32,000 bases of DNA from Methylorubrum extorquens (GTDB lineage: Bacteria; Pseudomonadota; Alphaproteobacteria; Rhizobiales; Beijerinckiaceae), in NCBI GenBank assembly GCA_900234795.1, contig LT962688.1, positions 4,230,001-4,262,000 on the forward strand, in the 5' to 3' direction. Of this stretch, positions 930-24,444 are shown in pieces. The first letter of the stretch is position 1; every line of letters starts with the position of its first letter. The notes below the pieces were generated by a model. The model was given only the letters and a program-made list of their open reading frames with translations. It searched no databases and was not told the DNA's origin. Both the position numbers and the translations under genes were made by a program.

Positions 930-966
930 GCGCCCCGCAGGCTATGATTCGTGCCCGGCGCGGTGA

Positions 967-983
967 ACTAGAATAATTCTTAG
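967..983. promoter_or_regulatory. Partial Irr/ICE-like box (acTAGAA-taa-TTCTtAg) in the AT-rich spacer between zwf and the SWIM operon
   Basis: It matches 10 of the 14 specified positions of the alphaproteobacterial iron control element TTTAGAA-N3-TTCTAAA (consensus recalled from the literature). It sits about 140 bp upstream of the 1125 start, in an unusually AT-rich stretch. Confidence 0.3.
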
Positions 984-1124
984 ATTAGCCTCAGATCAGC
1001 CGTCGTAAAGAGGATTGCCGGCTCAGCGAAAAGCCGGATCGCAGGAAAACTTGCTCATCGAGCCGATCTGTCTAATCTGGTTGTCCAACGATTCGACTGA
1101 CGGACATCCAGCCGCACGCGCCGC

Positions 1125-2492
1125 ATGAGCCTGACGACTGCCCAGATCCTCGATCTCGCCTCCGACGCATCGAGCCGCAAGGCCGGGCAGGATCAGGCGA
1201 AACCGCAAAAATGGGCCGGTCTCGGCCGGGCGGGCACGGTGATCTGGGGCGAGATCAAGGGCAGCGGGGCGAGCCCCTACCGCACGGTCGCGGATCTCGC
1301 CGGGCCGTCCTCGAAATGCACTTGCCCGAGCCGCAAGTTCCCCTGCAAGCACGGCCTCGGCCTGATGCTGGTCGATGCGAGCGCGCCGATCGCCGAGGCC
1401 GAGCCGCCGGACTGGGCCGCCGCCTGGATGAAGGGGCGCGAGAGCCGCGCCGCCGCGGCCGAGACCCGGGCGAAGGAACCCGCTAAGCCCGTCGACGAGC
1501 GGGCGCAGGCCAAGCGGCGTCAGGCCCGCGAGGATCGGGTCGCGGCCGCGCTCGACGAACTCGACCTGTGGCTGCGCGACCTGATGCGGCGCGGCCTCGC
1601 CGCCGCGCGAAGCGAACCTTACGCCTTCTGGGACCGCATGGCCGGGCGCCTCGTGGACGGACAGGCGCCGGGCCTCGCCCGCCGGGTGCGCGCCCTGCCG
1701 GGGCTGATCGCGGCGGCGCCTCAGGCCGGCGCGCCCCGGCCGGAAGCCGCGCTCGGCCTCGGCCTCGGCCGGCTCGCCCTGTTGCTCCGGGCCGCGCGCC
1801 GCCTCGATGCGCTGTCGCCCGAACAGGCGGCGGGCGTGCGCGCGGCGCTCGGCTACCCCGTCACCGCCGAGGAGATGGCGGCCCGGCCCGACCAGGCCGA
1901 CACCTGGGCGGTGCTGGCCCACGCGGTCGAGGAGGAGGACCGGCTGACCGCCCGTTCCGTCTGGCTCGTCGGCCGCGCCAGCGGCGCCGTGGCTCAGGTC
2001 ATCGATTATGGGACCGCGGGCGCGCCCCTGCCGCCGGCACCCGCCGCCGGCCAGGATTTTTCCGGCGCGCTCGCCTTCCAGCCCGGCGACCCGCCGCTGC
2101 GCGCCGTCTTTCGCGAGGGCCAGGCCGGCCCGGCGGCCGAGGCGGCTTTGCCCGGCGCGACCAGCGTCGCGGTGGCGCGGGACGCCTTCGCCGATGCGCT
2201 GTCGCGCGCGCCCTGGCTCGAGCGCTGGCCGGTGCGGCTGGGGCGCGTGCGGCTCGGGCGCCTCGCCGCTGGCAGCGCAGCGGCCTTCGCGGCGGGCGAC
2301 GAGACCGGCAGCCTTGCGCTGCGGGCCGAGCCGCGCCTGCCGAGCCTGCTCGCGGTGGCGGCGGGACGCCCGGTCGATCTGTTCGGCCTCTACGACGGCT
2401 ACGGCCTGAGCCCCCTCGCCCTGGTCGCGGAGGGCCGCCTCTACGCGATGCCGGCACAGGATTCGCAGCCCGTCCTGCTGCAGGTGGCCTGA
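1125..2492 (+). CDS. SWIM zinc-finger domain protein (YehQ-like N-terminal module), first gene of the five-gene MoxR/VWA operon
   Basis: A CxCx6CxH SWIM signature, KCTCPSRKFPCKHG, lies at nt 1317-1352. It is preceded by WGEIKGSGASPYRTV, which is typical of bacterial SWIM proteins. The stop TGA (2490-2492) overlaps the ATG of the next gene (TGATG). Confidence 0.8.
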   Translation: MSLTTAQILDLASDASSRKAGQDQAKPQKWAGLGRAGTVIWGEIKGSGASPYRTVADLAGPSSKCTCPSRKFPCKHGLGLMLVDASAPIAEAEPPDWAAAWMKGRESRAAAAETRAKEPAKPVDERAQAKRRQAREDRVAAALDELDLWLRDLMRRGLAAARSEPYAFWDRMAGRLVDGQAPGLARRVRALPGLIAAAPQAGAPRPEAALGLGLGRLALLLRAARRLDALSPEQAAGVRAALGYPVTAEEMAARPDQADTWAVLAHAVEEEDRLTARSVWLVGRASGAVAQVIDYGTAGAPLPPAPAAGQDFSGALAFQPGDPPLRAVFREGQAGPAAEAALPGATSVAVARDAFADALSRAPWLERWPVRLGRVRLGRLAAGSAAAFAAGDETGSLALRAEPRLPSLLAVAAGRPVDLFGLYDGYGLSPLALVAEGRLYAMPAQDSQPVLLQVA

Positions 2493-4075
2493 TGGACGCG
2501 ACCGAACGTGCCTCCGATGGTTGGGAGCCGACACTCGCCGCCGCGCTGCTCGGCGCCGAGCGCGCCCCGCTTGGCGAGCCCTCGGCGCTGACCGCCCTCG
2601 TCGCGGAGGCCGATCCCGGCGGCGCCCTGCTGGCGCGGCTTGCCGCCGAGGGTGCCCACCATCTCGCGGGCCTGGAACTCGGGCCGGAGGCGCTGACGCC
2701 GCTGGAGGAGCGCGGCCGCTTCGGGCCGGACTGCCCGCCCGCCGCCGCGACGCGGCTCTACGGCCTCCTCACCGAGGGCACCAGCGCGCGCAGCCGCGTC
2801 GAGGAATGGTTCGAACGCGCCGCCGCAACGGGCACGCGCCCGCCCGCTTGGCTGCTCCAGGCCTTGATGCTCCAGCGCGGCACCCTGCCCGCCGCGGCGC
2901 AGGCGGTCGTCGGCGCCGAACTCGACTGGCTCGCCCGCGCCTGCGGCGAGACCCCGGCCGACGGATCGGACGCGGCGGGGGCTTCGGACTGGACGGAAGG
3001 CACGGTGGCCGAGCGTCGCGCCGCCTTCACCGCCTTCCGCGCCCGCGATCCGGAAGGCGCGCGCGCCGCCCTGGAACCGCTCTTCCGCAAGGAGAAGGCC
3101 GACGCGCGCGAGGCCCTGGTCCACGCTCTGGCGACCGGCCTGTCGGCGGCCGACGAGCCCTTTCTCGAGGCCTGCCTCGACGACCGCGCCGGCGGCGTGC
3201 GGCTCGCCGCGCAGCACCTGCTGCCGGGGCTTCCCGGCTCGCGCTATGCCGAGCGCATGGCGGCCCGCGCCCGCACCGCGCTCAGCGTCGAGAGCAAGCG
3301 CAAGCTGCTCGGCGGCACCACGCACAATCTCGTCGTCACCCTGCCGGAGGAGAGCCCGGACCTCGCCCGCGACGGCGTCGAGGCGAACAGCTGGGAGCGG
3401 CGCGGCGGCGGTGCCCGCGCCGGCTTGCTGCGGGCGATCCTGGCGCGCGCGCCGCTCCACGCTTTCGCCGCGCATCCGCCGCGGCTCTGGATCGAGCTCG
3501 CTTTGCGCAGCGAGTGGGCCGACCCGGTCTTCCACGGCCTGTTCTCGGCGGCCAAGCGCACGCGCGACCCGGCCTGGGCGGAGGCGATGGCCGACATCAC
3601 GGCGGACGCCTACGAGGGCAAGGTCACCGGCGTCCGCCGCACCAACGAGGTTTTGGGGATGTGGGCGGAGGCGCTCGACCTCCTGCCGGACGCCGAATGG
3701 GAGGCACGGGTCGCGGCTTTGATCCGCGCCCGCAAGATCGAGGTGGTTCTGGCCGTGCTGGGCCAAGGCCCGGAGCACTTTTCCGAGTCCTTCAGCGCCG
3801 CTTTGCTCGATTGGCTCGCCTTCGTCACCCGCGGGTCGGACGCCCTGCGGCGCGATCTCGCCAAGCCCTGGGTGATCGCCCGCCTCGGCGACCGGCTCTG
3901 GCCGAGCGACGACAGCGCCGCCGCGGCCGCCGCCATCCTGGCGCGGCTGCCGGAGGGGGAGGGCGACCGCCTGCGCACGCAGCTCACGGGATTGACGGGC
4001 GTGCTGGAACTGCGCGCCGCGATCCGGCGCGACTTCCGACCGGAAACCACCACAGGGGGAACGGCTCAAGGATGA
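2492..4075 (+). CDS. Hypothetical alpha-helical (HEAT-like repeat) protein, DUF5691-like by position and composition
   Basis: ATG at 2492 lies in the frame of track ORF 1568..4075. The upstream 308 codons are Arg/Pro/Gly junk overlapping the SWIM gene. The sequence is Ala/Leu-rich and helical (ALVHALATGLSAADEPFLEACLDDRAGGVRLAAQHLLPGL). The stop overlaps the next start (ATGA at 4072-4075). The family assignment was not verified. Confidence 0.6.
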   Translation: MDATERASDGWEPTLAAALLGAERAPLGEPSALTALVAEADPGGALLARLAAEGAHHLAGLELGPEALTPLEERGRFGPDCPPAAATRLYGLLTEGTSARSRVEEWFERAAATGTRPPAWLLQALMLQRGTLPAAAQAVVGAELDWLARACGETPADGSDAAGASDWTEGTVAERRAAFTAFRARDPEGARAALEPLFRKEKADAREALVHALATGLSAADEPFLEACLDDRAGGVRLAAQHLLPGLPGSRYAERMAARARTALSVESKRKLLGGTTHNLVVTLPEESPDLARDGVEANSWERRGGGARAGLLRAILARAPLHAFAAHPPRLWIELALRSEWADPVFHGLFSAAKRTRDPAWAEAMADITADAYEGKVTGVRRTNEVLGMWAEALDLLPDAEWEARVAALIRARKIEVVLAVLGQGPEHFSESFSAALLDWLAFVTRGSDALRRDLAKPWVIARLGDRLWPSDDSAAAAAAILARLPEGEGDRLRTQLTGLTGVLELRAAIRRDFRPETTTGGTAQG

Positions 4076-5172
4076 CATCGACCCACGCCGTCAAGACCGC
4101 GCAGCTGCGCCAGGCTGCCGAGGATGCCTTCGCCGAGGAGATCGCGGCGCTCCGCGACTCCGACGACCGACCGCGCCCGCCGAACTGGCAGATGTCGCCG
4201 CAGGCGGTCGTTACCTACCTGCTCGGCGGCAAACTCCCGTCGGGCTTCGAAGTCACGCCAAAGTATATCGGCGACCGGCGCCTGATGGAGGTCGCGGTGG
4301 CGACGCTGGCCACCGACCGGGCGCTGCTGCTGCTCGGCGTGCCGGGCACCGCCAAGAGCTGGGTCAGCGAGCATCTGGCGGCGGCGATCTGCGGCACCTC
4401 GCGCCTGATCGTGCAAGGCACCGCCGGCACCAGCGAGGAGGCGATCCGCTACGGCTGGAACTACGCGCTGCTGCTGGCCAAGGGCCCGAGCCGCGAGGCG
4501 GTGGTGGCCTCGCCGATCATGCGGGCAATGAACGAGGGCCGCATCGCCCGCGTCGAGGAGCTGACCCGCATCCCCTCCGAGACGCAGGACAGCTTCATCA
4601 CCGTTCTCTCGGAAAAGACCCTGCCGATCCCCGAGCTGAACGAGGAGGTCGCGGCGCAAAAAGGCTTCAACCTCATCGCCACGGCCAACAACCGGGACCG
4701 CGGCGTCAACGAATTGTCGAGCGCGCTCAAGCGCCGCTTCAACACCGTGGTGCTGCCGCCGCCCGCCACGATCGAGGCCGAGATCGCCATCGTCGAGACC
4801 CGCGTCGCCGCGCTCGGGCGGGCCTTCGAGATCCCCGCCGAGCCGCCGGGCGCCGAGCAGATCCGCCGCGTCGTCACGATCTTTCGCGAGCTGCGCGAGG
4901 GGGTGACGGCGGATGGCAAGAGCAAGGTGAAGCAGCCCTCGGGCACGCTCTCGACGGCCGAAGCCATCAGCGTCGTCGGCAGCGGGCTGGCACTCGCCGC
5001 GCATTTCGGCGACGGCCGCCTCTCGGCCCACGACCTCGTCTCGGGGATCAGTGGCGCCGTGGTGAAGGACCCGGTGCAGGACGCCATCGTCTGGCGCGAG
5101 TATCTCGAAACCGTGGTGAAGGAGCGCGACGGCTGGAAGGATTTTTATAAGGCCGCTCGCGCGAGCGCGTGA
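4072..5172 (+). CDS. MoxR-class AAA+ ATPase (YehL-like)
   Basis: Walker A is LLGVPGTAKS (nt 4336-4359). The Walker B region is IARVEELTR, so EE replaces the usual DE. Sensor-1 is LIATANNRD and the Arg-finger region is SSALKRRF. At 366 aa it is a single AAA+ module typical of MoxR proteins. Start and stop both overlap neighbouring genes. Confidence 0.85.
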   Translation: MTSTHAVKTAQLRQAAEDAFAEEIAALRDSDDRPRPPNWQMSPQAVVTYLLGGKLPSGFEVTPKYIGDRRLMEVAVATLATDRALLLLGVPGTAKSWVSEHLAAAICGTSRLIVQGTAGTSEEAIRYGWNYALLLAKGPSREAVVASPIMRAMNEGRIARVEELTRIPSETQDSFITVLSEKTLPIPELNEEVAAQKGFNLIATANNRDRGVNELSSALKRRFNTVVLPPPATIEAEIAIVETRVAALGRAFEIPAEPPGAEQIRRVVTIFRELREGVTADGKSKVKQPSGTLSTAEAISVVGSGLALAAHFGDGRLSAHDLVSGISGAVVKDPVQDAIVWREYLETVVKERDGWKDFYKAARASA

Positions 5173-7499
5173 CCCGAGCGATGCCTGACATCCGTCTCTT
5201 CGGCATCCGCCACCACGGCCCCGGCTCGGCCCGCTCGCTAAAGGCGGCGCTCGACGCGCTCAACCCCGATTGCCTGCTGATCGAGGGGCCGCCGGACGCC
5301 GACGCGCTGATCCCGCTAGCCGCCCACGAGGCGATGGCGCCGCCCGTCGCGCTCCTCGTCTACCGGCCGGACCGGCCGCGCGATTGCGCCTTCTTCCCCT
5401 TCGCGGCCTTCTCGCCGGAATGGGTGGCGATGCGCTTTGGCGTCGCGGCGGGCGCGACCCTGCGCTTCATCGACCTGCCGCACGCGAACCAGCTCGCCGA
5501 CGGCTTTGGCGCGCCGGAAGCCCCGCCGGAGGCCGCGCCGATCGATGCGGAGCCAGTGACAGAGGCGGCCGAAGCGCCATCCGGGGACGGGCCGGCACCG
5601 GCCGCGATCCGGCGCGATCCGCTCGGCGAACTCGCGGCACTCGCCGGCTACCCCGACGGCGAGCGCTGGTGGGACGCGCTGGTCGAGAGCCGCGCGGGCG
5701 CGGACGGCGACGTGTTCGCCGCCATCCATGAGGCGATGGCGGCCCTGCGCGAGGGCGCCGAGACCGACCCCTATGAAGCTTTTCGCGAGGAGGCGCGCGA
5801 GGCGCATATGCGCAGCGCGATCCGGCGGGCGGCCAAGGACGGGTTCGAGCGCATCGCCGTGATCTGCGGCGCGTGGCACGTTCCCGCGCTCGCCCGCCAC
5901 GACGCCAAGGGCCAAGCCACGGCGGATACCGCGACCCTGAAAAACCTGCCCAAGACCAAGGTCGCCGCGGCCTGGGCGCCCTGGTCCTACGAGCGGCTGG
6001 CCTTCGCCTCCGGCTACCGCGCCGGGGTGCTCTCGCCGGAATGGTACGACACCCTGTGGCACCACGAGGGCCGCGTCGCCGCCCGCTGGCTCGCCCGCGC
6101 CGCCGCGCTGCTGCGGGAGAACGATCTCGATGCCTCGCCGGCCTCGGTGATCGAGGCGGCCCGGCTCGCCGAGGCGTTGGCGGGTTTTCGCGGCCGGTCC
6201 CGGCCCTCCCTCGACGATCTCGATGAAGCCGCCCAGGCCACGCTCTGCTTTGCCGACCCGGCGCCGATGGGGCTGATCCGGCGCAAGCTCGTGATCGGCG
6301 AGCGCCTCGGTGCCACCCCGCCGGACAGCCCCGGCACCCCGGTCGAGGCGGATTTCGAGGCGCAGTGCAAGCGCCTGCGCCTGAGGCCCGGCGCGGCGGG
6401 CGAGATCACCCTCGACCTGCGCAAGGAGACGGATCTGGCCCGCAGCCATTTCCTCAACCGGCTGAGCCTGATCGGCATCCCCTGTGGGGAGCGGCGCGAA
6501 GCGCGCGGGCGCGGCACCTTCAAGGAGGGCTGGTTCCTGGCTTGGCAGCCGGAATGGGTGGTGGAGTTGGTGGCGGCCTCGGCTGAGGGCGGCACCATCG
6601 CCGAGGCCGCCGCCGGCCGGGTGCGGGTCCGCGCCCGCGAGGCGACCCGCGTCGCCGAGCTCTCCGGCCTGATCGGCACCCTGCTCGACGCCGACCTCGC
6701 CGAGGCCACGGCGGAGGTGATCCGCGCGCTCAACGACCGCGCCGCGGTCTCGGCCGACGTGTTCGACCTGATGGACGCGCTGCCCCCGCTCGCCGAACTC
6801 GCCCGCTACGGCTCCGTACGCTCCTCCGACACCGAACCCGTGCTCGCCGTGGTGCGGGGCCTCGTGCCGCGCGCCGCCGCCGGGCTGGTCGCCGCCTGCC
6901 AGAGCCTCGACGACGACGCGGCGAGCGCCGCCAAGGCGCGCATCGTCGCCGTCTCCGGCGCGGTCGGGCTGATCGAGGAGCCGGAGTTGAAGGCGGTGTG
7001 GGGGGAGGCGTTGCGGGCGCTGGCCGATCAGGAGCATGTCCATGGCCGCGTCGTCGGCCGCGCCGTGCGCCTGCTCTTCGACGAGCGCGCCATCGAAGCC
7101 GCGGAGGCCGGCGAGCGCCTGCGCCTCGCCCTGTCGCGGGCCTCGGGTGCGGGACCGGCCGCTGCCTGGATCGAGGGGTTTCTGGAGGATAGCGGCACCG
7201 TGCTGATCCACGGGCGCGAATTGCTCGCCGTCGTCGATGAATGGCTCTGCGGCCTCGACGCGGATCTCTTCACCGAGTTGCTGCCGCTGGTGCGCCGCAC
7301 CTTCGCGACCCTGGCGCCGGCCGAGCGCCGGGCGGTCGGCGAGGCCCTGGCCCGGCCGGGCGGAGCCGCTCCCGGCGAGGCGGAAGGCGCCCAGGGCTTC
7401 GATGCGGCGCGCGCGGCCAAGGTGCTGCCGATCCTGCGCCTGCTGCTCGGCCCCGAGCTCCCCAGAACCGCGGATGAAACCACGGGAGACGCCGCATGA
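5169..7499 (+). CDS. Large DUF5682/YehM-like protein with an N-terminal TraB/PrgY/TIKI-like motif set
   Basis: The GTG start at 5169 overlaps the ATPase stop (GTGA); an alternative ATG lies at 5181. N-terminal motifs are RLFGIRHHGPGSA, PDCLLIEGP, REAHMRSAIRR and ERIAVICGAWHVPAL. The remaining ~500 aa are Ala/Leu-rich and helical. The 776 aa size is close to E. coli YehM (about 760 aa, recalled). Confidence 0.7.
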   Translation: MTRAMPDIRLFGIRHHGPGSARSLKAALDALNPDCLLIEGPPDADALIPLAAHEAMAPPVALLVYRPDRPRDCAFFPFAAFSPEWVAMRFGVAAGATLRFIDLPHANQLADGFGAPEAPPEAAPIDAEPVTEAAEAPSGDGPAPAAIRRDPLGELAALAGYPDGERWWDALVESRAGADGDVFAAIHEAMAALREGAETDPYEAFREEAREAHMRSAIRRAAKDGFERIAVICGAWHVPALARHDAKGQATADTATLKNLPKTKVAAAWAPWSYERLAFASGYRAGVLSPEWYDTLWHHEGRVAARWLARAAALLRENDLDASPASVIEAARLAEALAGFRGRSRPSLDDLDEAAQATLCFADPAPMGLIRRKLVIGERLGATPPDSPGTPVEADFEAQCKRLRLRPGAAGEITLDLRKETDLARSHFLNRLSLIGIPCGERREARGRGTFKEGWFLAWQPEWVVELVAASAEGGTIAEAAAGRVRVRAREATRVAELSGLIGTLLDADLAEATAEVIRALNDRAAVSADVFDLMDALPPLAELARYGSVRSSDTEPVLAVVRGLVPRAAAGLVAACQSLDDDAASAAKARIVAVSGAVGLIEEPELKAVWGEALRALADQEHVHGRVVGRAVRLLFDERAIEAAEAGERLRLALSRASGAGPAAAWIEGFLEDSGTVLIHGRELLAVVDEWLCGLDADLFTELLPLVRRTFATLAPAERRAVGEALARPGGAAPGEAEGAQGFDAARAAKVLPILRLLLGPELPRTADETTGDAA

Positions 7500-8659
7500 G
7501 CGCGCGCGAAGCGGAACGCCTGCGCCGCTGGCGCCTCGTGCTCGGCGGCGGAGCGGCCGAGGGCACCGGCTGCACTTTGAGCGAGCGCGACCAGCGGCTC
7601 GACCGGGCGATGGGCGCCCTCTACGATTCCGATCGCAAGGGCGGTCTCGGCGCCTCCGCGCCCTCCGTGCCGCGCTGGCTCGGCGATATCCGCGACTACT
7701 TCCCGGCCTCCGTGGTGCAGGTGATGCAGCGCGACGCCTTCGAGCGGCTCGACCTCAAGCGGATGCTGACCGAGCCGGAGATGCTGGAGGCGGTCCAGCC
7801 CGACGTCTCCCTCGTCTCGACCCTGATCTCGATGCGCGGCCTGCTCGGCGGGCGCACCAAGGAGACGGCGCGCCTCGTGGTGCGCAAGGTGGTGGACGCG
7901 CTGATGAAGCGGCTGGAGGAGCCCCTGCGCCAAGCCGTGACCGGGGCGATCGACCGCGCCAGCATCAACCGCCGCCCGCGCCACGCCGAGATCGACTGGA
8001 ACCGCACCATCCGGGCGAACCTGCGCCACTATCAGGCGGAGTACCGCACCATCATCCCCGAGACCCGCCTCGGCCACGGGCGGAAAAGCCGCGGATCGCT
8101 GAAAGACGTGATCCTGTGCATCGACCAGTCCGGCTCGATGGCCAATTCCGTGGTCTACTCATCCATCTTCGGGGCGGTGATGGCCTCGCTGCCGGCGGTC
8201 TCGACCCGGCTCGTGGTGTTCGACACCGAGGTGGTCGATCTCTCCGACGCCATGGACGATCCGGTCGAGGTGCTGTTCTCGGTCCAGCTCGGCGGCGGCA
8301 CCGACATCAACCGGGCGGTCGGCTACTGCGCCTCGCGCATCACCCGGCCCGAGGACACGGTGCTGGTGCTGATCTCCGATCTCTACGAGGGCGGGGTCGA
8401 GGCCGGGCTGCTCGCCCAGGCGCAGCGCCTCGTTGCTGCTGGCGTTCAGGTGGTGGCGTTGCTCGCTCTCTCCGACGAGGGCGCGCCGGCCTATGACCGG
8501 GGGCTGGCCGCGCGGCTGGCCGCACTCGGCGTGCCCGCCTTCGCCTGCACGCCGGATCTCTTCCCCGACATGATGGCGGCGGCGATCCGCAAGCAGGATC
8601 TCAACGCCTGGGCCGCCGGCGCCGGCATCGCCGCGGTCCCGGCCGCCCATGACGGCTGA
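7496..8659 (+). CDS. VWA domain protein (CoxE/YehP-like), predicted partner of the MoxR ATPase
   Basis: The ATG overlaps the upstream stop (ATGA at 7496-7499). The N-terminus RLRRWRLVLGG is typical of CoxE-type VWA proteins. The MIDAS motif is complete: DQSGS (nt 8123-8137), then GGGTD and ISDLYEGG. Confidence 0.85.
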   Translation: MSAREAERLRRWRLVLGGGAAEGTGCTLSERDQRLDRAMGALYDSDRKGGLGASAPSVPRWLGDIRDYFPASVVQVMQRDAFERLDLKRMLTEPEMLEAVQPDVSLVSTLISMRGLLGGRTKETARLVVRKVVDALMKRLEEPLRQAVTGAIDRASINRRPRHAEIDWNRTIRANLRHYQAEYRTIIPETRLGHGRKSRGSLKDVILCIDQSGSMANSVVYSSIFGAVMASLPAVSTRLVVFDTEVVDLSDAMDDPVEVLFSVQLGGGTDINRAVGYCASRITRPEDTVLVLISDLYEGGVEAGLLAQAQRLVAAGVQVVALLALSDEGAPAYDRGLAARLAALGVPAFACTPDLFPDMMAAAIRKQDLNAWAAGAGIAAVPAAHDG

Positions 8660-8955
8660 GCGGCCGCCCTCGCCGAAAGCCGCGTTCGGGAGTCTCGGCC
8701 TGCCGGTGCTGTGGTTCCGCGCCCTGCTGGGGAGCGTCCGCCGAGTGGAGCGCTGAGGGCTTGCGCACGGGTTCGTCACGGGGGCGGTCGGCGACCTGGA
8801 GTTGGCCTGACAATCGGCTGCGAGTGTTCAAGGTTTCAGGGCATGGCAGCCATGTAATCGACGGGTTGTCGCTCGCCCGAACGTGTTGTAGCGGACCACT
8901 CGGGCCAATAAATTTTTGAGCGGCGCGAAAAATAAAATGAATAATGACGATAAAC

Positions 8956-8984
8956 TTCACATCCGTTCCGCCAATGTGCAATAT
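8956..8984 (+). promoter_or_regulatory. Candidate sigma70-type promoter of mqo (TTCACA-17 bp-CAATAT)
   Basis: It lies in a markedly AT-rich 100-bp stretch. The -10 element ends 6 nt before the ATG at 8991, so the transcript would be leaderless or nearly so. This is based on pattern only. Confidence 0.25.
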
Positions 8985-8990
8985 AGTCTG

Positions 8991-10643
8991 ATGCCGATGA
9001 ACCGGCGTCACGTTCTCGGCGGCGCGCTGGCGGGTCTGGCGGCAACGGCTCTGCCGGGTTCGCCCCTGCTCGCGGCGGACGAGCCCCGCAAGGTCGATGT
9101 GCTGCTGATCGGCGGCGGCATCATGAGCGCGACGCTCGGTGTCTGGCTGCGCGAGCTCGAGCCCGACTGGTCGCTGGAGATGGTCGAGCGGCTCGACGGC
9201 GTGGCCCTGGAAAGCTCCAACGGCTGGAACAATGCCGGCACCGGCCACTCGGCCCTGGCCGAGCTGAACTACACCCCGGAGGATTCCAAGGGGAACGTCC
9301 AGATCAACAAGGCCGTCGAAATCAACGAGGCCTTCCAGGTCACGCGCCAGTTCATGGCGTGGCAGGTCCAGAAGGGCGTGCTGAAGAACCCGCGCTCCTT
9401 CATCAACTCCACGCCCCACATGAGCTTCGTCTGGGGTGACGACAACATCACCTTCCTGCGCAAGCGCTACGAGGCGCTGAAGGCGAGCCCGCTGTTTGCC
9501 GGGATGGAGTTCTCGACCGACCCCGAGCAGGTCAAGAAGTGGGTCCCCCTGATGATGGAGGGGCGCGACCCGAAGCAGAAGGTCGCCGCCACGTGGTCGC
9601 CGCTCGGCACCGATTGCGAGTGGGGCGAGGTCACCCGCCAGTACATCGCCTCGCTGAAGAGCGGCCCGAAGTTCGACCTGCGCCTCTCGACCGAGGTCGA
9701 GAGCTTCGAGCGCAACAAGGACGGGACCTGGCGCGTCACCTCGAAGAACCTGAAGGACGGCAGCCGCCACACGGTCGATGCCCGGTTCGTGTTCATCGGC
9801 GCGGGCGGCGGCGCGCTGCACCTGCTGCAGGCCACCGGCATTCCCGAGGCCGACGAGTATGGCGGCTTCCCCGTCGGCGGCTCGTTTCTCGTCACCGATA
9901 ACCAGGACGTGGCCCTGCGCCACCTCGCCAAGGCCTACGGCAAGGCCTCGGTCGGCTCGCCGCCGATGTCCGTGCCGCACCTCGACACGCGGGTGCTCGA
10001 CGGCAAGCGCGTGATCCTGTTCGGACCCTTCGCGACCTTCTCGACCAAGTTCCTGAAGGAAGGCTCGTATTTCGACCTTCTGACCTCGACCACCACCAGC
10101 AATGTCTGGCCGATGGTCCGCGTCGGCGTCGAGCAGTACCCGCTGATCGAGTACCTCGCCGGCCAGGTGATGCTGTCCGACGAGGACCGCTACCAGGCCC
10201 TGCGCGAGTACTTCCCCGATGCGAAGAAGAACGAGTGGCGCCTCGTCCAGGCCGGGCAGCGCGTGCAGATCATCAAGCGCGACCCGGAGAAGGGCGGCGT
10301 GCTCAAGCTCGGCACGGAAGTCGTGAGCGCCAAGGACGGCAGCATCGCCGCCCTGCTCGGCGCCTCGCCGGGCGCCTCCACCGCCGCACCGATCATGCTG
10401 ACCGTGCTGGAGAAGGTGTTCGCGCAGAAGGTCGCCAGCCCCGAATGGCAGGCGAAGATCCGCCAGATCGTGCCGAGCTACGGCACGAAGTTGAACGGCG
10501 ATCCGCAGCGGGTGCAGCAGGCGCTGGCCTATACCAGCGAGCACCTGCAGCTCACCCCGCCACCGCAGATCGGCACCCCGGCCCAGCCGACGCCCGCATC
10601 CGAGATGGGGACCGTCAAGTCGGTCCCCGACATGGCACCGTAA
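8991..10643 (+). CDS. mqo: Malate:quinone oxidoreductase
   Basis: It is near-collinear with E. coli Mqo (recalled): [89 protein letters not shown]. The start is taken at 8991 (or 8997) because codons 8916-8990 are AT-rich and atypical for this genome. The N-terminus [26 protein letters not shown] resembles a Tat or membrane-anchor signal. Confidence 0.9.
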
Positions 10644-10663
10644 CCTGGCGCCGTAAGGTGATC

Positions 10664-10701
10664 GGGGCCGGAGCGGACCGTCAGGCCTCCGCTTCGGCCC
10701 C
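10664..10701. terminator. GC-rich hairpin between convergent mqo and the AI-2E transporter gene
   Basis: GGGGCCGGAGCGG-12 nt-CCGCTTCGGCCCC forms a 13-bp stem with one G-U pair. There is no clear U-tract, and the right arm overlaps the last codons of the minus-strand gene. Confidence 0.3.
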
Positions 10702-11874
10702 ATCCTCGATGTAGAGTTCTTCCAGCAGCACCTTGATCACGGCCACGAGCGGCAGCGCGAGCGCCACGCCCCACAGGCCGAACAGCACGCCGAGCAGGAG
10801 CTGGCCGGCGAAGATCGTCGCCGCCGGCAGGTCGAGGGCGCGGCGCTGGATGAACGGGGTGAGCCCGTAGCTCTCCGCCGCCTGCACCGCGAGGTAGACG
10901 CCGAGCGCCCCGAGCAATCCGTTCAGCCCCGAAGCGAGGCTGCTCAGCACGATCACCAGACCCGCGATCAACGGCCCGATGGTCGGCACGAAGGCGAGCA
11001 GGCCCGCCTGGAGCCCGAGGATCAGCGCGCCGCCGATCCCGAGGAAGCTCAAGCCCGCCCAGGTCAGCACGAAGATCGCCGCCATGGTCACGAGCTGCCC
11101 GAACAGCCAGTGCCGCAGGGTCTCGCCCGATCCGTCGAGGACGCGCGCGCCCTTCTCGCGGTGGCGCGGAGGCACGAGCCGCAGGGCGCCGTCGCGGTAG
11201 CTCCCCGGGTCGGCGGCGATGGCGACGCCGAGGAAGACGATCACGAGGACGTTGCCCAGCGCGTTGAACAGCGCGATCACCACGGTCGCCGCCGGCCCAA
11301 GCACGCTGCCGGCATCCGACAGCAGCGAGCCGGGGCTCTTGAGGGCGCCCGAGGCGAGGCCGGCGAGGCCGCCTTCCTTCCCGTTCTTGTCCTTGCCCGT
11401 CTCTTTGCCCGTATCCTGGCCCTTGCCTTCTCCACTCTGACCGGCCTCCGCCGGTGCCCCCTGCGACAGGTCGATCTCGACGCCGCGCTCCTTCAGCCAG
11501 TCGCGCACGGTCTCCGATTGCTGGCGCACCGTCGTGCCTAGGTCGCGTGCCTGGCTCGCCACGGTGGCGCCGCCGAAGGCCGTGAGCCCGAGCGCGAGGG
11601 CGGCGAGCACGAGGCTGGCGATCGCGAGGCGCCACCCGCGCCCGATCGGCAGCACATATCCGAGGCCCCGGGTCACCCCGTCGAGGAAGACGGCGAACAA
11701 GATGCCGGAAAAGATCAGCAGCAGCGTCGCTGCCGCGGTCCAAGCGAGCCAGAGGGCGGCGGCGAAGGCCACGACCGCGATGCCCGCGGCCGCAAGGCGC
11801 CATGCGCCCGGCGGGTTGGCCGGCGGGCTGAAAGGGGGAGCCGTCATGGTTCGGGGGATCCGTTTGCGGTTCAT
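10681..11874 (-). CDS. AI-2E family transporter (PerM/UPF0118)
   Basis: It has a multi-pass membrane profile and the conserved C-terminal block FVPTIGPLIAGLVIVLSSL...YGLTPFIQRRALDLPAATIFAGQLLLGVLFGLWGVALALPLVAV. An alternative start lies at 11847. It contains a Gly/Lys/Glu-rich low-complexity loop (GQSGEGKGQDTGKETGKDKNGKEGG). Confidence 0.85.
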   Translation of the reverse strand: MNRKRIPRTMTAPPFSPPANPPGAWRLAAAGIAVVAFAAALWLAWTAAATLLLIFSGILFAVFLDGVTRGLGYVLPIGRGWRLAIASLVLAALALGLTAFGGATVASQARDLGTTVRQQSETVRDWLKERGVEIDLSQGAPAEAGQSGEGKGQDTGKETGKDKNGKEGGLAGLASGALKSPGSLLSDAGSVLGPAATVVIALFNALGNVLVIVFLGVAIAADPGSYRDGALRLVPPRHREKGARVLDGSGETLRHWLFGQLVTMAAIFVLTWAGLSFLGIGGALILGLQAGLLAFVPTIGPLIAGLVIVLSSLASGLNGLLGALGVYLAVQAAESYGLTPFIQRRALDLPAATIFAGQLLLGVLFGLWGVALALPLVAVIKVLLEELYIEDGAEAEA

Positions 11875-13646: not shown

Positions 13647-14639
13647 ATGATGAGCCGTCTCTCGATGCTGACGCTCGGCGGCCGGAAACGGTTCGACGAT
13701 CTCAGCGAGCAGGAGATCCTGGCGCTCGCGATCGGGTCCGAGGAGGAGGACGGCCAGATCTACCGGGCCTATGCGGGACGCCTGCGCGGCGAATACCCCC
13801 ATTCGGCCGCCCTGTTCGACGCGATGGCGGAGGCCGAGGATGAGCATCGCCGCCGCCTGATCGCGCGCTACAAGCAGCGCTTCGGCGACTTCATCATCCC
13901 GATCCGGCGCGAGCACATTGCCGGCTATTACAGCCGCAAGCCGGTCTGGCTGATGCGCAATCTCGGGCTCGACCGGGTCCGCGAGGAGGCCGCCGCGATG
14001 GAGCGGCAGGCGCGCGACTTCTACCTCGCCGCCGCCCGGCGCTCGACCGACGCCGACACGCGCCGCCTGCTCGGCGACCTCGCCGCGGCGGAGAGCGCGC
14101 ACGAGCGGACGGCCGAGGCGCTGGCGGACGAGCATCTCGGCGGCTCCGTCCGCGACGAGGAGGACGCGGCCGCCCATCGCCAGTTCATCCTGACCTGGGT
14201 CCAGCCGGGGCTTGCCGGCCTCATGGACGGGTCGGTCTCGACGCTCGCGCCGATCTTCGCCACGGCGTTTGCCACGCAGAACCCGTGGACGACCTTCCTC
14301 GTCGGCCTCTCGGCCTCGATCGGCGCCGGCATCTCGATGGGCTTCACCGAGGCCGCGCACGACGACGGCAAGATCTCCGGGCGCGGGTCACCGCTGAAAC
14401 GCGGCCTCGCTTCCGGCGTGATGACCGCGCTCGGCGGCCTCGGCCACGCGCTGCCCTACCTGATCCCGAACTTCTGGCTGGCGACGAGCATCGCCTTCGC
14501 CGTGGTCTTCTTCGAGCTCTGGGCCATCGTCTGGATCCAGAACCGCTACATGGAGACGCCCTTCCTGCGCGCCGCCTTCCAGATCGTGCTCGGCGGCTCC
14601 CTCGTGCTCGCGACGGGCATCCTCATCGGCGGCGCCTGA
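13647..14639 (+). CDS. mbfA: Membrane-bound ferritin-like (erythrin)-VIT1/CCC1 fusion iron exporter
   Basis: The N-terminal ferritin-like domain carries ExxH motifs ([20 protein letters not shown]). The C-terminal VIT1/CCC1 membrane domain has [15 protein letters not shown] and [15 protein letters not shown]. The architecture matches MbfA of Bradyrhizobium and Agrobacterium. Confidence 0.85.
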
Positions 14640-14660
14640 CGGGCCCATGGACGAGCGCGC

Positions 14661-15347
14661 CTACCCGCAGGCGATCTGATCGCAGCGCCGCATCGCCCCG
14701 ATCATCTTCGCCAGCGACTTCACGCCGGGATGGCCGAGCACGCCGGTATTGCCGAGGACGTAGGAGGGGGTCGCGGTGAGGCCGAGATTGGCCGCGACGG
14801 TCATGTGGGCGCGCATCGCCTCGCGCACCTCGTCGCTGTCGGCGATCTGTTCGAGTTCGGCCCGCGTCACCCCGGCCTTGGCACCGATCTCAAGCGCCTT
14901 GAGGCCATCGATCTGGCCCTTGGTGGCGAGAAGCTGGCCGTAGAAGGCGAAGGCCGCCGCCGAGCCGAGCTTGCGCTGGACGGCGAGCGAGACCTTGGCG
15001 GCCTGGGCCGACATCGGCGAGAGGATCGGGTTGTGGACGAGGCCGATGCGGAGGGCCGGATCGCTGGCGGCGAGCGCTGTGACGTCGGCGGCGGCCTTGC
15101 GGCACCAAGGGCAGTTGTAGTCGAAGAACTCGTAGAGGGTCACCTCGGCCTCGCGCGGGCCGACATAGGTGACGCCGCGCAATTCCTGGATCTGCCCGGT
15201 GATCTCGCCGGGCAGCCGCATGTTGGCCACCGGCCGGCCCTCGTCGTTCTCGACCTTGAAGGTCTGGCCATAGCTCTGCGCGGCGGCAGGGCCGACGATC
15301 GCGAGGCCGAGCGAGGAGGCGAGGAAGCGGCGGCGGTCGAGGCTCAT
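14661..15347 (-). CDS. DsbA-family thiol:disulfide oxidoreductase, exported
   Basis: The thioredoxin-fold active site is FFDYNCPWCRK. The start is taken at MSLDRRRFLASSLGLAIVGPAAAQS, a Tat/Sec-type signal. The track ORF extends 14 codons further upstream. Confidence 0.8.
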   Translation of the reverse strand: MSLDRRRFLASSLGLAIVGPAAAQSYGQTFKVENDEGRPVANMRLPGEITGQIQELRGVTYVGPREAEVTLYEFFDYNCPWCRKAAADVTALAASDPALRIGLVHNPILSPMSAQAAKVSLAVQRKLGSAAAFAFYGQLLATKGQIDGLKALEIGAKAGVTRAELEQIADSDEVREAMRAHMTVAANLGLTATPSYVLGNTGVLGHPGVKSLAKMIGAMRRCDQIACG

Positions 15348-15493
15348 AGGCGGATCCCTGATCGGGCGCGGTCTGAGCGGACCGCGCATGCCGCGCTATA
15401 TCCGCCGAGCATGGTTTATTTTTGCACCGCTCGGGCCGGCAATCCGACCGCCGAGCGACCGGCCGGTTTCGGCATGAAGGGGATGCGGTCGTT

Positions 15494-15817
15494 TCAGGCG
15501 AGGACTTGCAAGCCGTGTTTTTGGACCACCGCCAAGAGCTTCAGCGCCATGCCGCTGGGACGTTTGGCACCGGTCTCCCACTTCTCGATCGTGCTCTCGC
15601 TGGTGTTGAGATAGCGAGCGAATACCGGCTGGCTGACGTTATTGGCCTCGCGGAGCCTCTTGATCTGGGCCGGCTCGATCATGTCCGGCACCATCAGGTG
15701 GCGCGCATCGAAGTCGCGCATGGTGGCTTTGTCCAGCGCCCCGACCTTATGCAACATGGCTGCCGAGGCGTGAATCGCTTCGGAAATGTCGCTCCTGTAC
15801 TTACGCTTTGTCGCCAT
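15494..15817 (-). CDS. HTH (XRE/NadS-YiaG-like) antitoxin of a HigBA-type toxin-antitoxin pair
   Basis: The C-terminal HTH is IKRLREANNVSQPVFARYLNTSESTIEKWETGAKRPSGMALKLL. It overlaps the upstream toxin gene by 17 nt. Its GC content is visibly lower than the flanking DNA. Confidence 0.8.
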   Translation of the reverse strand: MATKRKYRSDISEAIHASAAMLHKVGALDKATMRDFDARHLMVPDMIEPAQIKRLREANNVSQPVFARYLNTSESTIEKWETGAKRPSGMALKLLAVVQKHGLQVLA

Positions 15818-19300: not shown

Positions 19301-19757
19301 GGAAGGTCGCGGCCTCGACCAGCGCGTTGCCGGCGGTCAGCTCCTCGCGCTTCAGGTGGTCGGGCAGGATGCCGTACTTGATCGGCCCGAACAGCGCCGC
19401 GATGATCCCGAACAGGCCAAGCGCCGCGAACAGGAGCGGCACCGAGTGCAGCCAAAAGCCGAGCACCGAGAGCAGGGCCGCGAAAATCTCCGCGAATTTC
19501 AGCCGCTTGGCCAGCACCGCCTTGTCGTAGCGGTCGGCCATCTGCCCGCCGAGGCCCGACAGGATGAAGAACGGGCCGATGAACACGGCGCTGGCCAGCG
19601 TCACCAGCACCCCGCCCGAACTCTCGGCCCGCGCGCTCACCTGAAACAGGATCAGCAGAGCGAGCGCGTTCTTGAGGAAATTGTCGTTGAAGGCTGAAAA
19701 GAATTGGCACCAGAACAGCGGCGCGAAGCGTCGCGTCGTCATCAGTGTGCGGAACAT
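16341..19757 (-). CDS. aas: Tri-domain fusion of an MFS lysophospholipid transporter (LplT-like), a PlsC-type acyltransferase and an acyl-ACP synthetase (Aas-like)
   Basis: The start is taken at MFRTLMTTRRFAPLFWCQFFSAFNDNFLKNAL (MFS N-terminus), with GGGAGAG 6 nt upstream. The acyltransferase HxxxxD motif is NHVSFLDAP. The AMP-binding motif is ILFTSGSEGTPKGV, followed by later adenylation motifs (YGVTE, WYDTGD). The track ORF extends 77 codons upstream into non-coding-looking sequence. Confidence 0.85.
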   Translation of the reverse strand: MFRTLMTTRRFAPLFWCQFFSAFNDNFLKNALALLILFQVSARAESSGGVLVTLASAVFIGPFFILSGLGGQMADRYDKAVLAKRLKFAEIFAALLSVLGFWLHSVPLLFAALGLFGIIAALFGPIKYGILPDHLKREELTAGNALVEAATFLAILLGTITAGLAMAMGGHALGLGAGLMGMAVLCWLAARMIPATGEGAPDLHVDRNVARSTAELLRDLWSDTRLWRGSVIVSWFWLVGVVILSLMPVLVRQTLNGTEIVATTLLAIFSVGIAVGSGLASWLASGRIVLLPTPVGAVLMGLFGLDLAWTVSQVSPAVGEPVGAWDFISGGSGLRIAIDFFGLAVAGGLYVVPSFAAVQAWTEKAKRARVIGAVNVLTAAFMVAGTLALAVLQGLGLSTAQLLGLVAVLNLIAGAVILVTLPTNPLRDALSILFRAFYRLEVKGLENVEKAGPNAIVALNHVSFLDAPLALSLLDKEPVFAIDHGIAQRWWVKPFLKVTKAMPLDPTRPLATRTLINAVKSGETLIIFPEGRLTVTGSLMKVYDGAGLIADKSGAMVVPVKIDGPERTIFSRLKRDQVRRAWWPKVTVTIMPPVRLHVDPELKGKNRRRAAGAALYDIMSDLVFETADIDRGVFAALIEAGQLHGWRRTALEDPVSGTMSYARLVMGANILGRKLQALLPDAKKPVGLMLPNANGAAVTFFALASAGRVPAMINFSAGPAAVLSACRAAQVDTLLTSRAFIEKGRLGALIEGIQGSLRLIYLEDVRAGVTTGDKIRGFLEPRRPLVARHGSDPAAILFTSGSEGTPKGVMLANRAMLANTAQVAARIDFGPRDKVFNVLPVFHAFGLTAGLVLPLISGVPVYLYPSPLHYRIVPELIYGTNATVLFGTDTFLTGYAKMAHSYDLRSLRYVVAGAEPVKQATRKTWAEKFGLRILEGYGVTECGPVLALNTPMFNRFGTVGRLLPGIESRLEPVPGLDEGGRLMVRGPNIMLGYLRAENPGVLESPADGWYDTGDIVAFDADGFVTIKGRAKRFAKIAGEMVSLASVEALAAELWPDAPSAVAAVPDARKGERLILFTQAKGATRAAYQTHAKSRGAADVAVPAEVVVVEGLPMLGTGKVDQVGVTKLARERAATAEAA

Positions 19758-19817
19758 CGTGGTCTCTCCCGGCTCCGGGCATGACTGCCTGCCGACGGCG
19801 TAGGCGTCAAATCCGCG

Positions 19818-19836
19818 TTTTGCACGACGTTCAAAA
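19818..19836. promoter_or_regulatory. Operator-like palindrome TTTTGCAC-gac-GTTCAAAA in the aas/tetR divergent region
   Basis: It has 8-bp arms with one mismatch. It shares the core TTGCAC-GNC-GTNCAA with the site at 19869-19885, 50 bp away centre to centre. Confidence 0.4.
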
Positions 19837-19868
19837 TGAACGCGGCCCGAGCCGGCTGCAAGCTTGAT

Positions 19869-19885
19869 ATTGCACGGCGTGCAAT
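19869..19885. promoter_or_regulatory. Perfect palindrome ATTGCAC-ggc-GTGCAAT, a candidate TetR operator
   Basis: It has 7-bp perfect arms. It lies 10 bp upstream of the tetR ATG and 112 bp upstream of the divergent aas start. Confidence 0.45.
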
Positions 19886-19894
19886 CTACCCCGG

Positions 19895-24358: not shown

Positions 24359-24444
24359 CGGACAGGCTCCCGCGTGAGCAACGGCCACGCTTTGCCTTTC
24401 CAACGGCTCGTTCTCGGCCCGGTGCCCGGAGCCGGGCAAAAAAA

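Follow-up and report, generated by a model that had tools for sequence, protein, structure and literature searches.

The window examined here is a 32,000-nt stretch of Methylorubrum extorquens contig LT962688.1 (assembly GCA_900234795.1, positions 4,230,001 to 4,262,000 of the forward strand) with a G+C content of ~70%. Open reading frame (ORF) calling confirmed five consecutive plus-strand genes at positions 1125-8659 of the window, encoding in order a SWIM zinc-finger protein (g1), a DUF5691 protein (g2), a MoxR AAA+ ATPase of the YehL subfamily (g3), a DUF5682 protein (g4) and a CoxE-type VWA protein (g5; Table 1). The order SWIM-DUF5691-AAA_5-DUF5682-VWA is abbreviated below as S-H-A-D-V, and its MoxR-DUF5682-VWA core as A-D-V. 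This cassette belongs with the YehL-type MoxR-VWA gene cluster, of which it is an ancient variant that is widespread and horizontally mobile, with a partner arm that differs from the one found in Escherichia coli. Few AAA+ systems are as widespread as the MoxR-VWA pairs, or as poorly understood, and to our knowledge the YehL subfamily has been without a function since its definition in 2006, though it belongs to the core genome of E. coli K-12.

The five ORFs show a third-codon-position GC content of 0.86-0.97, with the phase shifting exactly at every junction. The junction strings quoted in the first-pass annotation of this DNA were all found to be present, namely TGATG (2490-2494, a 1-nt overlap of the g2 start with the g1 stop), ATGA (4072-4075), GTGA (5169-5172) and ATGA (7496-7499). 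The overlap of stop and start codons is certain at three of these junctions, the caveat being the start of g4, where the junction with g3 is either GTGA or an ATG lying 8 nt downstream. The GTG start at 5169 is insecure because a 97%-identical M. extorquens homologue of g4 has been annotated with 772 aa, which matches the ATG at 5181, 8 nt past the g3 stop. Homologues of g4 start 5-6 residues ahead of an FGIRHHG motif. Even with an 8-nt gap the junction is still tight and compatible with translational coupling, the overlap itself being unproven there. The start position of g1 is backed by the N-termini of 31 homologues.

Upstream of g1, a sigma-70-like site, a terminator and an Rfam family were looked for in the 930-1124 intergenic region and none was detected. 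Scans for promoters, terminators, Rfam families and tRNAs in and around the operon likewise gave nothing above chance. The cassette is flanked by zwf (105-929) and by mqo (8916-10643), the latter separated from g5 by 256 nt.

Table 1. Positions of the genes, motifs and other features discussed in the text (window coordinates, except for the locus-prefixed entry)
Feature	Position	Strand	Remarks
Intergenic region, presumed promoter and leader of the operon	930..1124	+	195 bp, zwf stop to g1 ATG
g1, SWIM zinc-finger protein	1125..2492	+	455 aa; Pfam SWIM
SWIM motif of g1, CTCPSRKFPCKH	1317..1352	+	residues 65-76; C65-x-C67-x6-C74-x-H76; regular expression match
g2, DUF5691 protein	2492..4075	+	527 aa; Pfam DUF5691
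g3, YehL-subfamily MoxR AAA+ ATPase	4072..5172	+	366 aa; single AAA_5 module
Walker A of g3, GVPGTAKS	4336..4359	+	residues 89-96; read from translation
Walker B of g3, E162-E163	4555..4560	+	EE instead of DE; read from translation
g4, DUF5682 protein	5169..7499	+	776 aa from GTG 5169, or 772 aa from ATG 5181
N-terminal TraB/TIKI/erythromycin-esterase-like domain of g4 (predicted)	5169..6068	+	residues 1-300; predicted structure, Foldseek
First GxxH of g4, G12-I-R-H15-H16	5202..5216	+	directly after beta-1; pairs with YbaP G38-S-I-H41
Second GxxH of g4, C233-G-A-W-H237	5865..5879	+	after strand 228-234; preceded by R210-E211-x-x-M214-R215
g5, CoxE-type VWA protein	7496..8659	+	387 aa; complete MIDAS site
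MIDAS motif of g5, D210-Q-S-G-S214	8123..8137	+	read from translation; T269 and D295 downstream
E. coli yehP	L001:11968-13104		carries the published +1 frameshift site

The family memberships that had been guessed from the translations (SWIM, DUF5691, AAA_5/MoxR, DUF5682 and VWA_CoxE) were confirmed by Pfam for all five proteins. Protein g1 matched the SWIM family with 22.5 bits against a gathering cut-off of 19.6; its only three cysteines lie within the SWIM motif CTCPSRKFPCKH, whose Cys and His residues are invariant in an alignment of 32 g1 sequences. Protein g2 matched DUF5691 over its full length (E 2.7e-78, 265 bits, profile positions 3-489 of 491). Only ~22 of its positions are ≥90% conserved, and it is the fastest-evolving of the five subunits. 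The first-pass annotation had described g2 as a HEAT-like helical protein; one copy of a HEAT-like motif (LDDR..VR.AA..LL..LP) can be seen by eye, and the Pfam scan gave no HEAT match.

The ATPase g3 matched AAA_5 (E 3e-38) and is conserved at ≥90% in ~200 of its 366 positions. These include G89, P91, G92, T93, A94 and K95 of Walker A (74 sequences), N206 (sensor-1 Asn) and R221/R222 (Arg finger). The EE of Walker B is kept in ≥90% of the 74 homologues and also in YehL (VRFEEITR). The placement of g3 in the YehL subfamily of MoxR fits with its identity to YehL and with the DUF5682 and VWA_CoxE genes immediately downstream of it. By analogy with its family, g3 would be expected to form a hexameric ring whose ATPase activity is stimulated by the VWA partner. 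Protein g5 matched VWA_CoxE (E 1.7e-52), and D210-Q-S-G-S214, T269 and D295 are all ≥90% conserved among 70 sequences. The motifs reported at first sight, namely SWIM CxCx6CxH, Walker A GVPGTAKS, the EE Walker B and the MIDAS, were thus verified and are conserved in 70-74 homologues.

When the proteins were searched against the sequences of the PDB, g3 alone matched, its best hits being the AAA modules of midasin (E 2e-8) and NorQ; g1, g2, g4, g5 and a profile of the g4 N-terminal domain gave no match. NCBIfam returned only far-sub-threshold ATPase matches (MadB and GvpN). No convincing transmembrane segment was found in any of the five proteins, nor was an RGD motif, which had been considered with CoxF-CoxE docking in mind.

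Distribution and conservation of the cassette

In a pattern scan that took one genome from each GTDB species, at least 589 DUF5682 loci were detected; 80 of these were fetched for analysis, and the window proteins were searched with phmmer against the six-frame ORFs of these 80 loci. The loci span more than 12 phyla and include members of the Alpha-, Beta- and Gammaproteobacteria, Planctomycetota, Verrucomicrobiota, Chloroflexota, Cyanobacteria, Acidobacteriota, Bacteroidota, Actinomycetota, Deinococcota, Clostridia, Myxococcota and Desulfovibrionales. The exact S-H-A-D-V order was found in 47 loci, to which five from Chitinophagaceae carrying an additional DUF4132 gene can be added, giving at least 52 of the 80. 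Most of the remaining loci are incomplete contigs. With the same order in so many loci and phyla, the five-gene arrangement lies far beyond chance. The survey of gene neighbourhoods thus shows the five genes to co-occur in one order, and the order and tight junctions seen across phyla bear out the earlier proposal of one co-inherited multi-subunit MoxR-VWA system.

The annotated loci of Verrucomicrobiae, Phycisphaerales, Kouleothrix and Pararoseomonas have the same order, with junctions that overlap or are shorter than 12 nt, except in the Phycisphaerales locus, where 75 nt separate the ATPase gene from the DUF5682 gene. The ATGA overlap of the DUF5682 and VWA genes is retained in every annotated homologous locus inspected. 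In Pararoseomonas (L088:13527-14105), a 192-aa ORF without a Pfam match begins on the final base of the VWA gene; it is a possible lineage-specific sixth subunit and is absent from the window.

Clustering of the flanking ORFs of the 80 loci revealed no recurrent neighbour save for DUF4132 in Chitinophagaceae. Within M. extorquens the layout zwf-S-H-A-D-V-mqo-AI-2E is the same, while in other Methylobacterium species zwf or mqo is missing next to the cassette. As the gene order is conserved while the flanks are unrelated, the cassette is autonomous. It had been argued in the first-pass annotation that the housekeeping flanks speak for a cellular role; since these flanks vary, even within Methylobacterium, they carry little information and the argument is weak.

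The closest homologues of g4 are found in Methylobacterium/Methylorubrum (90-98% identity), and the gene is present throughout Methylobacterium (71-98%). A look-up of the exact g4 sequence returned no record. Beyond this group, similarity departs from taxonomy, with g4 being 51-52% identical to proteins of Phycisphaerae as against 39-43% for the plasmid copies of Rhizobium and Methylosinus, which indicates from these sequence comparisons that the cassette probably spread horizontally. Clustering at 50% identity divides the DUF5682 family into 4177 clusters, 1150 of them at E ≤ 1e-30, and the best 150 of the 4177 are all stand-alone proteins of 700-905 aa. Members were found on 44 plasmid records, mainly megaplasmids or chromids. 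Among viruses they are confined to one phage record and one of 2.9 million viral contigs. Two PHROGs families match g4 and g5, both of them of unknown function.

To compare constraint, 26 non-Methylobacterium loci with all five genes were used, with identity taken relative to the window proteins. The mean cross-phylum identity was 72% for the ATPase, 63% for the VWA protein, 46% for DUF5682, 38% for SWIM and 30% for DUF5691. The ATPase is thus as constrained as a housekeeping protein. It was also observed that the ATPases of Methylobacterium and of other phyla are 67-76% identical, an unusual constraint for a non-essential and patchily distributed gene. The gradient among the sequences fits a division into motor, adaptor, scaffold or enzyme, and recognition arm.

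Variants of the cassette show which of its parts can be changed. The SWIM and DUF5691 domains are fused in a 963-aa ORF of a Chloroflexia metagenome-assembled genome (MAG; L046:5997-8885, both Pfam domains present) and in a 952-aa ORF of Phytohabitans (L077:6098-8953); these natural fusions imply that g1 and g2 act together. A Trueperaceae MAG (L012:8479-17472) has no SWIM or DUF5691 genes, and its A-D-V genes are followed by a gene for a 1127-aa multi-WD40 beta-propeller protein. In the five Chitinophagaceae loci (L044:13447-16404, L058, L064, L069 and L076), a gene of ~980 aa with HEAT-repeat and DUF4132 regions follows the VWA gene. DUF4132 genes also occur in E. coli (yehH and yehI), and this recurrence points to a functional link of DUF4132 to the A-D-V system. 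In E. coli, YehQ together with WGR and DUF4132 genes stands in place of the SWIM/DUF5691 arm. A-D-V is therefore the invariant core, a single conserved unit across phyla, and the repeat-rich partner modules are exchangeable.

A number of loci depart from the intact operon. Two are split (L017 and L024), four are cyanobacterial (L022, L023, L029 and L031) and two others are L020 and L080. In some cyanobacteria the DUF5682 gene lies 1-2 kb from SWIM-DUF5691-AAA_5 or is without a detectable partner within 10 kb. In a Saprospiraceae MAG (L053:4963-6255), the region upstream of the DUF5682 gene includes a gene for a Peptidase_M19 (membrane dipeptidase), which sits between ORFs of 474, 524 and 355 aa that are sized like the SWIM, DUF5691 and ATPase proteins and were missed by phmmer. 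One Verrucomicrobiae locus (L002) has HNH_2 and Mrr_cat nuclease genes directly downstream (13809-15538) and Ku and LigD upstream (2055-5328). It was sampled twice (L002 and L003) and is the only defence- or repair-like neighbourhood among the loci inspected.

Relation to the yehLMPQ cluster of Escherichia coli

The E. coli K-12 yeh cluster contains the A-D-V core in the same order as the window. YehL is 40% identical to g3 over 347 aligned residues (full length, E 3e-78), YehM (DUF5682) is 26% identical to g4 and YehP (VWA_CoxE) is 37% identical to g5, each carrying the same Pfam family as its counterpart, so that the kinship noted in the first-pass annotation proved to be true homology for these three. 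The EE Walker B and the presence of a SWIM protein are also shared. The E. coli cluster differs in having its SWIM gene (yehQ) last, in lacking a DUF5691 gene and in carrying WGR (yehF) and DUF4132 (yehH and yehI) genes upstream.

The earlier suggestion that the SWIM component of E. coli had been split into two genes in the window found no support. YehQ has two CxC..CxH motifs and g1 has one, and BLAST detected no match of YehQ to g1 or g2 beyond the zinc finger. Profile-sequence and profile-profile comparison with hhalign, using profiles of 32 sequences each for g1 and g2 and of 12 sequences for YehQ, gave E-values of 0.085-0.58 (profile-profile E 0.085 for g1 and 0.44 for g2); with g1 the finger alone aligned, and with g2 no relation was seen. 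The real SWIM-DUF5691 fusions described above represent a unit other than YehQ. No relation was seen between DUF5691 and YehI/DUF4132 with hhalign. The YehQ family is small (318 clusters) and largely restricted to Enterobacterales, in contrast to the window-type cassette with its spread over more than 12 phyla.

The literature offers little on this cluster. YehL appears only as one of seven MoxR subfamilies (PMC3893208, PMC11834572), the subfamily being credited to Snider & Houry (2006) as cited in PMC3893208. For yehP, a +1 ribosomal frameshift at codon 291 giving a 303-aa product has been reported, with confirmation by reporter assays and mass spectrometry, and a swarming defect of a yehP knockout is cited in the same article (PMC2790909). 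Mutations in yehM appear as a list entry for copper-evolved E. coli lines (PMC12409786). No functional study on DUF5682, DUF5691, yehLMPQ, DUF4132 or VWA_CoxE was found in the literature searched, and hence no published activity of yehLMPQ homologues that would already define the system.

Among 5426 complete E. coli genomes, 5353 (98.7%) carry yehLMPQ, nearly always as a single chromosomal copy. This is a better argument for a cellular role than the flanking genes are, and it argues against a typical variable defence island. A role in defence or conflict was considered in comparison with the MoxR-vWA ternary conflict systems (VMAP, iSTAND, beta-propeller and FtsH types; Kaur et al., 2020, PMC7159879), in which a MoxR-VWA pair is combined with a variable HEAT, TPR or WD40 component and, in the iSTAND type, the VWA protein also has a CoxE-type N-terminal domain. 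The cassette would then be a nucleoside triphosphate-dependent immune module in which the arm senses an invader and the ATPase-VWA pair sets a threshold. Such a role would agree with the patchy, non-vertical distribution seen for g4, with the autonomy of the cassette among unrelated flanks and with its exchangeable recognition modules of superstructure-forming repeats, like those of the ternary systems; the Trueperaceae relative in particular resembles them, with a WD40 protein replacing SWIM and DUF5691. The nucleases downstream of the Verrucomicrobiae cassette and a weak match of g3 to Pfam bpMoxR (E 2e-4) point the same way. However, the bpMoxR score of 20.9 bits is below the cut-off of 27, the nuclease neighbours are confined to that one lineage and its doubly sampled locus, and the window has no VMAP, STAND, beta-propeller or FtsH component or recognised effector domain. 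DUF5682 is not mentioned in PMC7159879, in which the terms TraB and Tiki do not occur either. PADLOC-DB 2.0 gave no match for g2-g5 and only a weak JetD match for g1 (E 0.002), which was judged to be noise. The near absence from viruses, the presence throughout Methylobacterium, the single chromosomal copy in almost all E. coli, unlike variable defence islands, and the cross-phylum identity of the ATPase, atypical for fast-evolving immune genes, also speak against it. A defence function is thus regarded as unlikely.

The DUF5682 protein and the proposed machine

Protein g4 matched the DUF5682 family over its entire profile (E 6e-255, 848 bits, positions 1-727 of 727). An AlphaFold2 model based on a 61-sequence alignment (predicted local distance difference test score, pLDDT, 86; predicted template modelling score, pTM, 0.79) shows an N-terminal alpha/beta domain (~1-300) containing a disordered insert (from 121 to 142 or 148), a small alpha/beta unit (~410-460) and a C-terminal helical repeat (470-760). 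With the whole model, Foldseek found only generic helical-repeat matches in the PDB, none with E < 0.03, after which residues 1-305 were modelled separately (pLDDT 80).

The top match of this N-terminal domain in BFVD was a Marseillevirus "TraB family protein" (E 2.4e-5, probability 1.00, 271 columns), the second-ranked match having an E-value of 0.18. In the PDB, the top six matches were three entries of a Tetrahymena complex IV chain (E 0.04-0.3) and, for the rest, Bcr135 (3b55 and 2rad, E 0.2-0.5), which belongs to the erythromycin-esterase family within the TIKI superfamily (PMC6254334). Tetrahymena complex IV has been reported to contain a TraB-family subunit (PMC10060162), the matched chain being unconfirmed as that subunit. 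A histidine phosphatase reading of the "RHHG" motif was also tried and rejected, its Foldseek E-values lying above 3 and the TraB match being better by about five orders of magnitude.

The sequences of g4 and its homologues contain a colinear set of residues that resembles the TIKI arrangement. In an alignment of 52 sequences from many phyla, G12, R14, H15, E39, R210, E211, M214, C233, G234 and H237 are invariant and H16 is ≥90% conserved. In the model these sites follow strands beta-1 and beta-2, fall within the helix that precedes the last core strand and come again behind that strand, matching the His/Glu/Arg catalytic layout that has been described for TIKI enzymes (PMC6254334). Alignment of the profiles with E. 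coli YbaP (TraB family) by hhalign was non-significant (E 0.25-0.27), yet the expected motifs were paired: FGIRHHG...LIEGP with VGSIHMG...IVEAD, and REAxMR..CGAWH with QRNLAWR..VGALH. The corresponding sets are G12xxH15/E39/R210/G234xxH237 in g4 and G38xxH41/E67/R228/G249xxH252 in YbaP. The most recurrent non-self Pfam family in the N-terminal domains of homologues was TraB_PrgY_gumN (PF01963; 2 of 20 and 4 of 52 scans), with REAxMR...VVCGAWH aligned to profile positions 199-245 of 263. The matches were restricted to some homologues; the N-terminal domain of g4 itself had no TraB match in Pfam at E up to 10.

From the predicted fold and these motifs, the N-terminal region of g4 appears to be a previously unnoticed TraB/TIKI-type hydrolase domain, which sharpens the "hydrolase-like N-terminal motifs" noted earlier for this protein to a TraB/TIKI-like reading based on a model. 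It would share with the TIKI superfamily the predicted alpha/beta fold and the order of GxxH, Glu, Arg helix and second GxxH, with sub-threshold sequence similarity. Known TIKI members are stand-alone, membrane-anchored or embedded in toxins, whereas in g4 the domain is joined to a 470-residue helical scaffold. We know of no TIKI member that is fused to a helical scaffold and encoded with a MoxR-VWA pair.

It is suspected that the five proteins form an ATP-gated hydrolase complex, a reading that is favoured here tentatively, at somewhat short of an even chance. It would be one soluble cytoplasmic machine in three parts. The motor would be the YehL-type MoxR AAA+ ring of g3, and the adaptor would be the CoxE-type VWA protein g5, whose MIDAS may, as in other MoxR-VWA pairs, take hold of an acidic residue or peptide of a client and so link the client to the motor. 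Protein g4 would serve as both scaffold and catalyst, with the C-terminal helical repeat holding the assembly and the N-terminal domain serving as a TIKI-type catalytic head, its His/Glu/Arg set being apparently intact in the model. The products of g1 and g2 would make up a fast-evolving and exchangeable arm that selects or senses the client. In a cycle of this kind, the arm and the MIDAS site would capture a client, presumably a protein, ATP hydrolysis would remodel the client or the scaffold, and the TIKI-like site would then make a specific hydrolytic cut, most likely of a peptide bond and possibly of an ester. The first two steps follow the general MoxR-VWA mechanism, in which the VWA protein captures a peptide and the ATPase acts next (PMC7159879). 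Members of the TIKI superfamily with a 2His/Glu/Arg set are site-specific endopeptidases (Tiki and RRSP) or esterases (Ere; PMC6254334), and a proteolytic or ester cut is the most economical prediction because the known TIKI enzymes are of these two kinds. Of this picture, the structure of the operon, its joint inheritance, the domain identities and the conserved motifs are shown by the data, and the assembly into one complex, the catalytic activity of the domain, the sequence of events and a protein client are inferred.

Several points weigh against this proposal. The TIKI assignment of g4 rests on predicted structures, and the template modelling scores of the PDB matches were only ~0.3, partly as a result of the disordered insert. 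The TraB_PrgY_gumN matches were sub-threshold (best E 4e-4, 19.5 bits against a cut-off of 26.8), and the unrelated RepB_primase_C came to E 4.7e-4 in two of the 52 scans, a mark of the noise level; given this noise, sequence evidence alone is insufficient for the assignment. The second Glu of the canonical 2His/2Glu motif is not obvious in g4. Some proteins with a TIKI fold are non-enzymatic, ChaN being a haem binder and PMT C1/C2 lacking the catalytic set (PMC6254334). The physical assembly of all five proteins is deduced from genomics, and leads on a client, a regulator or a phenotype are limited to the swarming effect of yehP and the copper-associated yehM mutations.

A bolder and more doubtful form of the proposal is that DUF5682/YehM is the catalytic subunit of an unrecognised class of AAA+-gated TIKI-type proteases, in which the MoxR ring and the MIDAS adaptor would feed or unlock a site-specific hydrolase and the client would be chosen by SWIM, HEAT-like, DUF4132 or WD40 modules. 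If this is true, thousands of bacterial lineages and almost all E. coli would possess such a machine, a "split midasin with a blade", which would constitute a new system of regulated proteolysis beside Lon, Clp, FtsH and HslUV. The same domain could also serve the defence function discussed above as its effector, for instance as a protease cutting a host or phage protein, and toxins with a TIKI fold do exist, such as RRSP (PMC6254334).

A role as a chaperone for the insertion of a metal centre or cofactor, on the layout of CoxD-CoxE-CoxF, NorQ-NorD or CobS-CobT-CobN, is improbable. In this case the AAA+ and VWA proteins would open a folded apo-enzyme and DUF5682 would deliver or release the metal or cofactor, with the TIKI-fold domain binding or releasing the ligand in the manner of ChaN, the haem binder mentioned above. 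CoxD-CoxE-CoxF of Oligotropha carboxidovorans matures the [CuSMoO2] cluster of CO dehydrogenase and, like the window, combines a MoxR-class AAA+ protein, a VWA_CoxE MIDAS protein and a third protein with a hydrolase-type motif. CoxF docks on the VWA protein and uses its phytase-type hydrolase motif to mobilise Cu (PMC4240915). The VWA_CoxE membership of g5, the NorQ match of g3, the copper-evolved yehM mutations and the cobaltochelatase-like layout of AAA_5, VWA and a large third subunit would suit such a role, as would a weak match of g3 to the CobS-like phrog_249 ("porphyrin biosynthesis", E 1e-8). CoxF, however, is a 280-aa XdhC-family protein and not DUF5682, the Cox system has no SWIM or DUF5691 partners, and the cox genes adjoin their client enzyme, as is normal for maturation factors, whereas the flanks of the cassette vary freely and no conserved target enzyme, metal transporter or cofactor gene adjoins it in the 80 loci. 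DUF5682 shows no similarity to CobN/BchH, XdhC or CoxF, and the porphyrin-binding CobN/BchH subunits of the chelatases are unrelated to it; no CobN or Mg-chelatase match was found with Pfam in g4, g1 or g2. The invariant His/Glu/Arg set has the look of a catalytic site and not of a ligand-binding one, and the copper observation is no more than the list entry noted above.

The motor, MIDAS/VWA protein and large subunit or linker of the window are also found in midasin/Rea1 and in the chelatases CobS-CobT-CobN and BchI-BchD-BchH, with AAA_5-type or related motors. The cassette could accordingly be imagined as a split bacterial analogue of midasin (Rea1) that would use mechanical force to pull an assembly factor off a large ribonucleoprotein or protein complex, using the AAA_5 motor, helical linkers (the C-terminus of DUF5682 and DUF5691) and the MIDAS, with the SWIM finger binding nucleic acid and the TIKI-like domain being structural or inactive. 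The midasin AAA modules are the best PDB sequence matches of g3, the set of AAA_5, helical repeat and MIDAS is the same (comparison via PMC7159879), the PDB matches of the whole DUF5682 model were all helical-repeat scaffolds, and a housekeeping client would fit the extreme conservation of the ATPase and its status in the E. coli core genome. Midasin, however, is a single polypeptide with six fused AAA modules, and g3 has a single AAA module. In the 80 loci the cassette is not linked to genes for the ribosome or for RNA processing, the cassette is missing from many bacteria, so that its client is not universal and essential, and the invariant catalytic-type residues speak against a TIKI-like domain that is structural and nothing more. 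A midasin-like function is therefore considered very unlikely.

For the ATP-gated hydrolase complex, the predicted TIKI/TraB-type site in the large subunit offers a concrete enzymatic hypothesis that may be addressed by mutagenesis in a model organism. If this hypothesis is correct, bacterial cell biology would gain a new hydrolase or protease system coupled to ATP, and the poorly understood bacterial TraB/TIKI family would be given its first partner context.

Remaining content of the window

Outside the cassette the window is ordinary chromosome, with genes for an AI-2E transporter, a hexapeptide transferase, a rubrerythrin-VIT fusion, DsbA, an Aas-like protein, a TetR regulator, HAD, hisZ, hisG, hemE, a PPSR kinase, GT61, Maf and a CDF transporter. 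The ORF at 13647-14639 (+) combines an N-terminal rubrerythrin with a C-terminal VIT1 domain and is likely to encode an iron-handling membrane protein. A 1215-aa protein with MFS transporter, acyltransferase and AMP-binding parts is encoded at 16344-19988 (-) and represents an Aas-like fusion of a lysophospholipid transporter and an acyl-ACP synthetase, with the TetR regulator (19895-20575) lying divergent from it.

Long antisense ORFs were also detected, such as one of 700 aa opposite mqo (8601-10703, -) and two of 503 and 545 aa opposite g1 and g2. These are shadow ORFs typical of high-GC DNA, with no Pfam match or with the wrong phase of third-position GC. Two further ORFs of ~250-270 aa, at 24020-24829 (-) and 24935-25675 (+), had no Pfam match at E ≤ 1e-4 and show only moderate third-position GC (0.68 and 0.82), so their status as real genes is uncertain.

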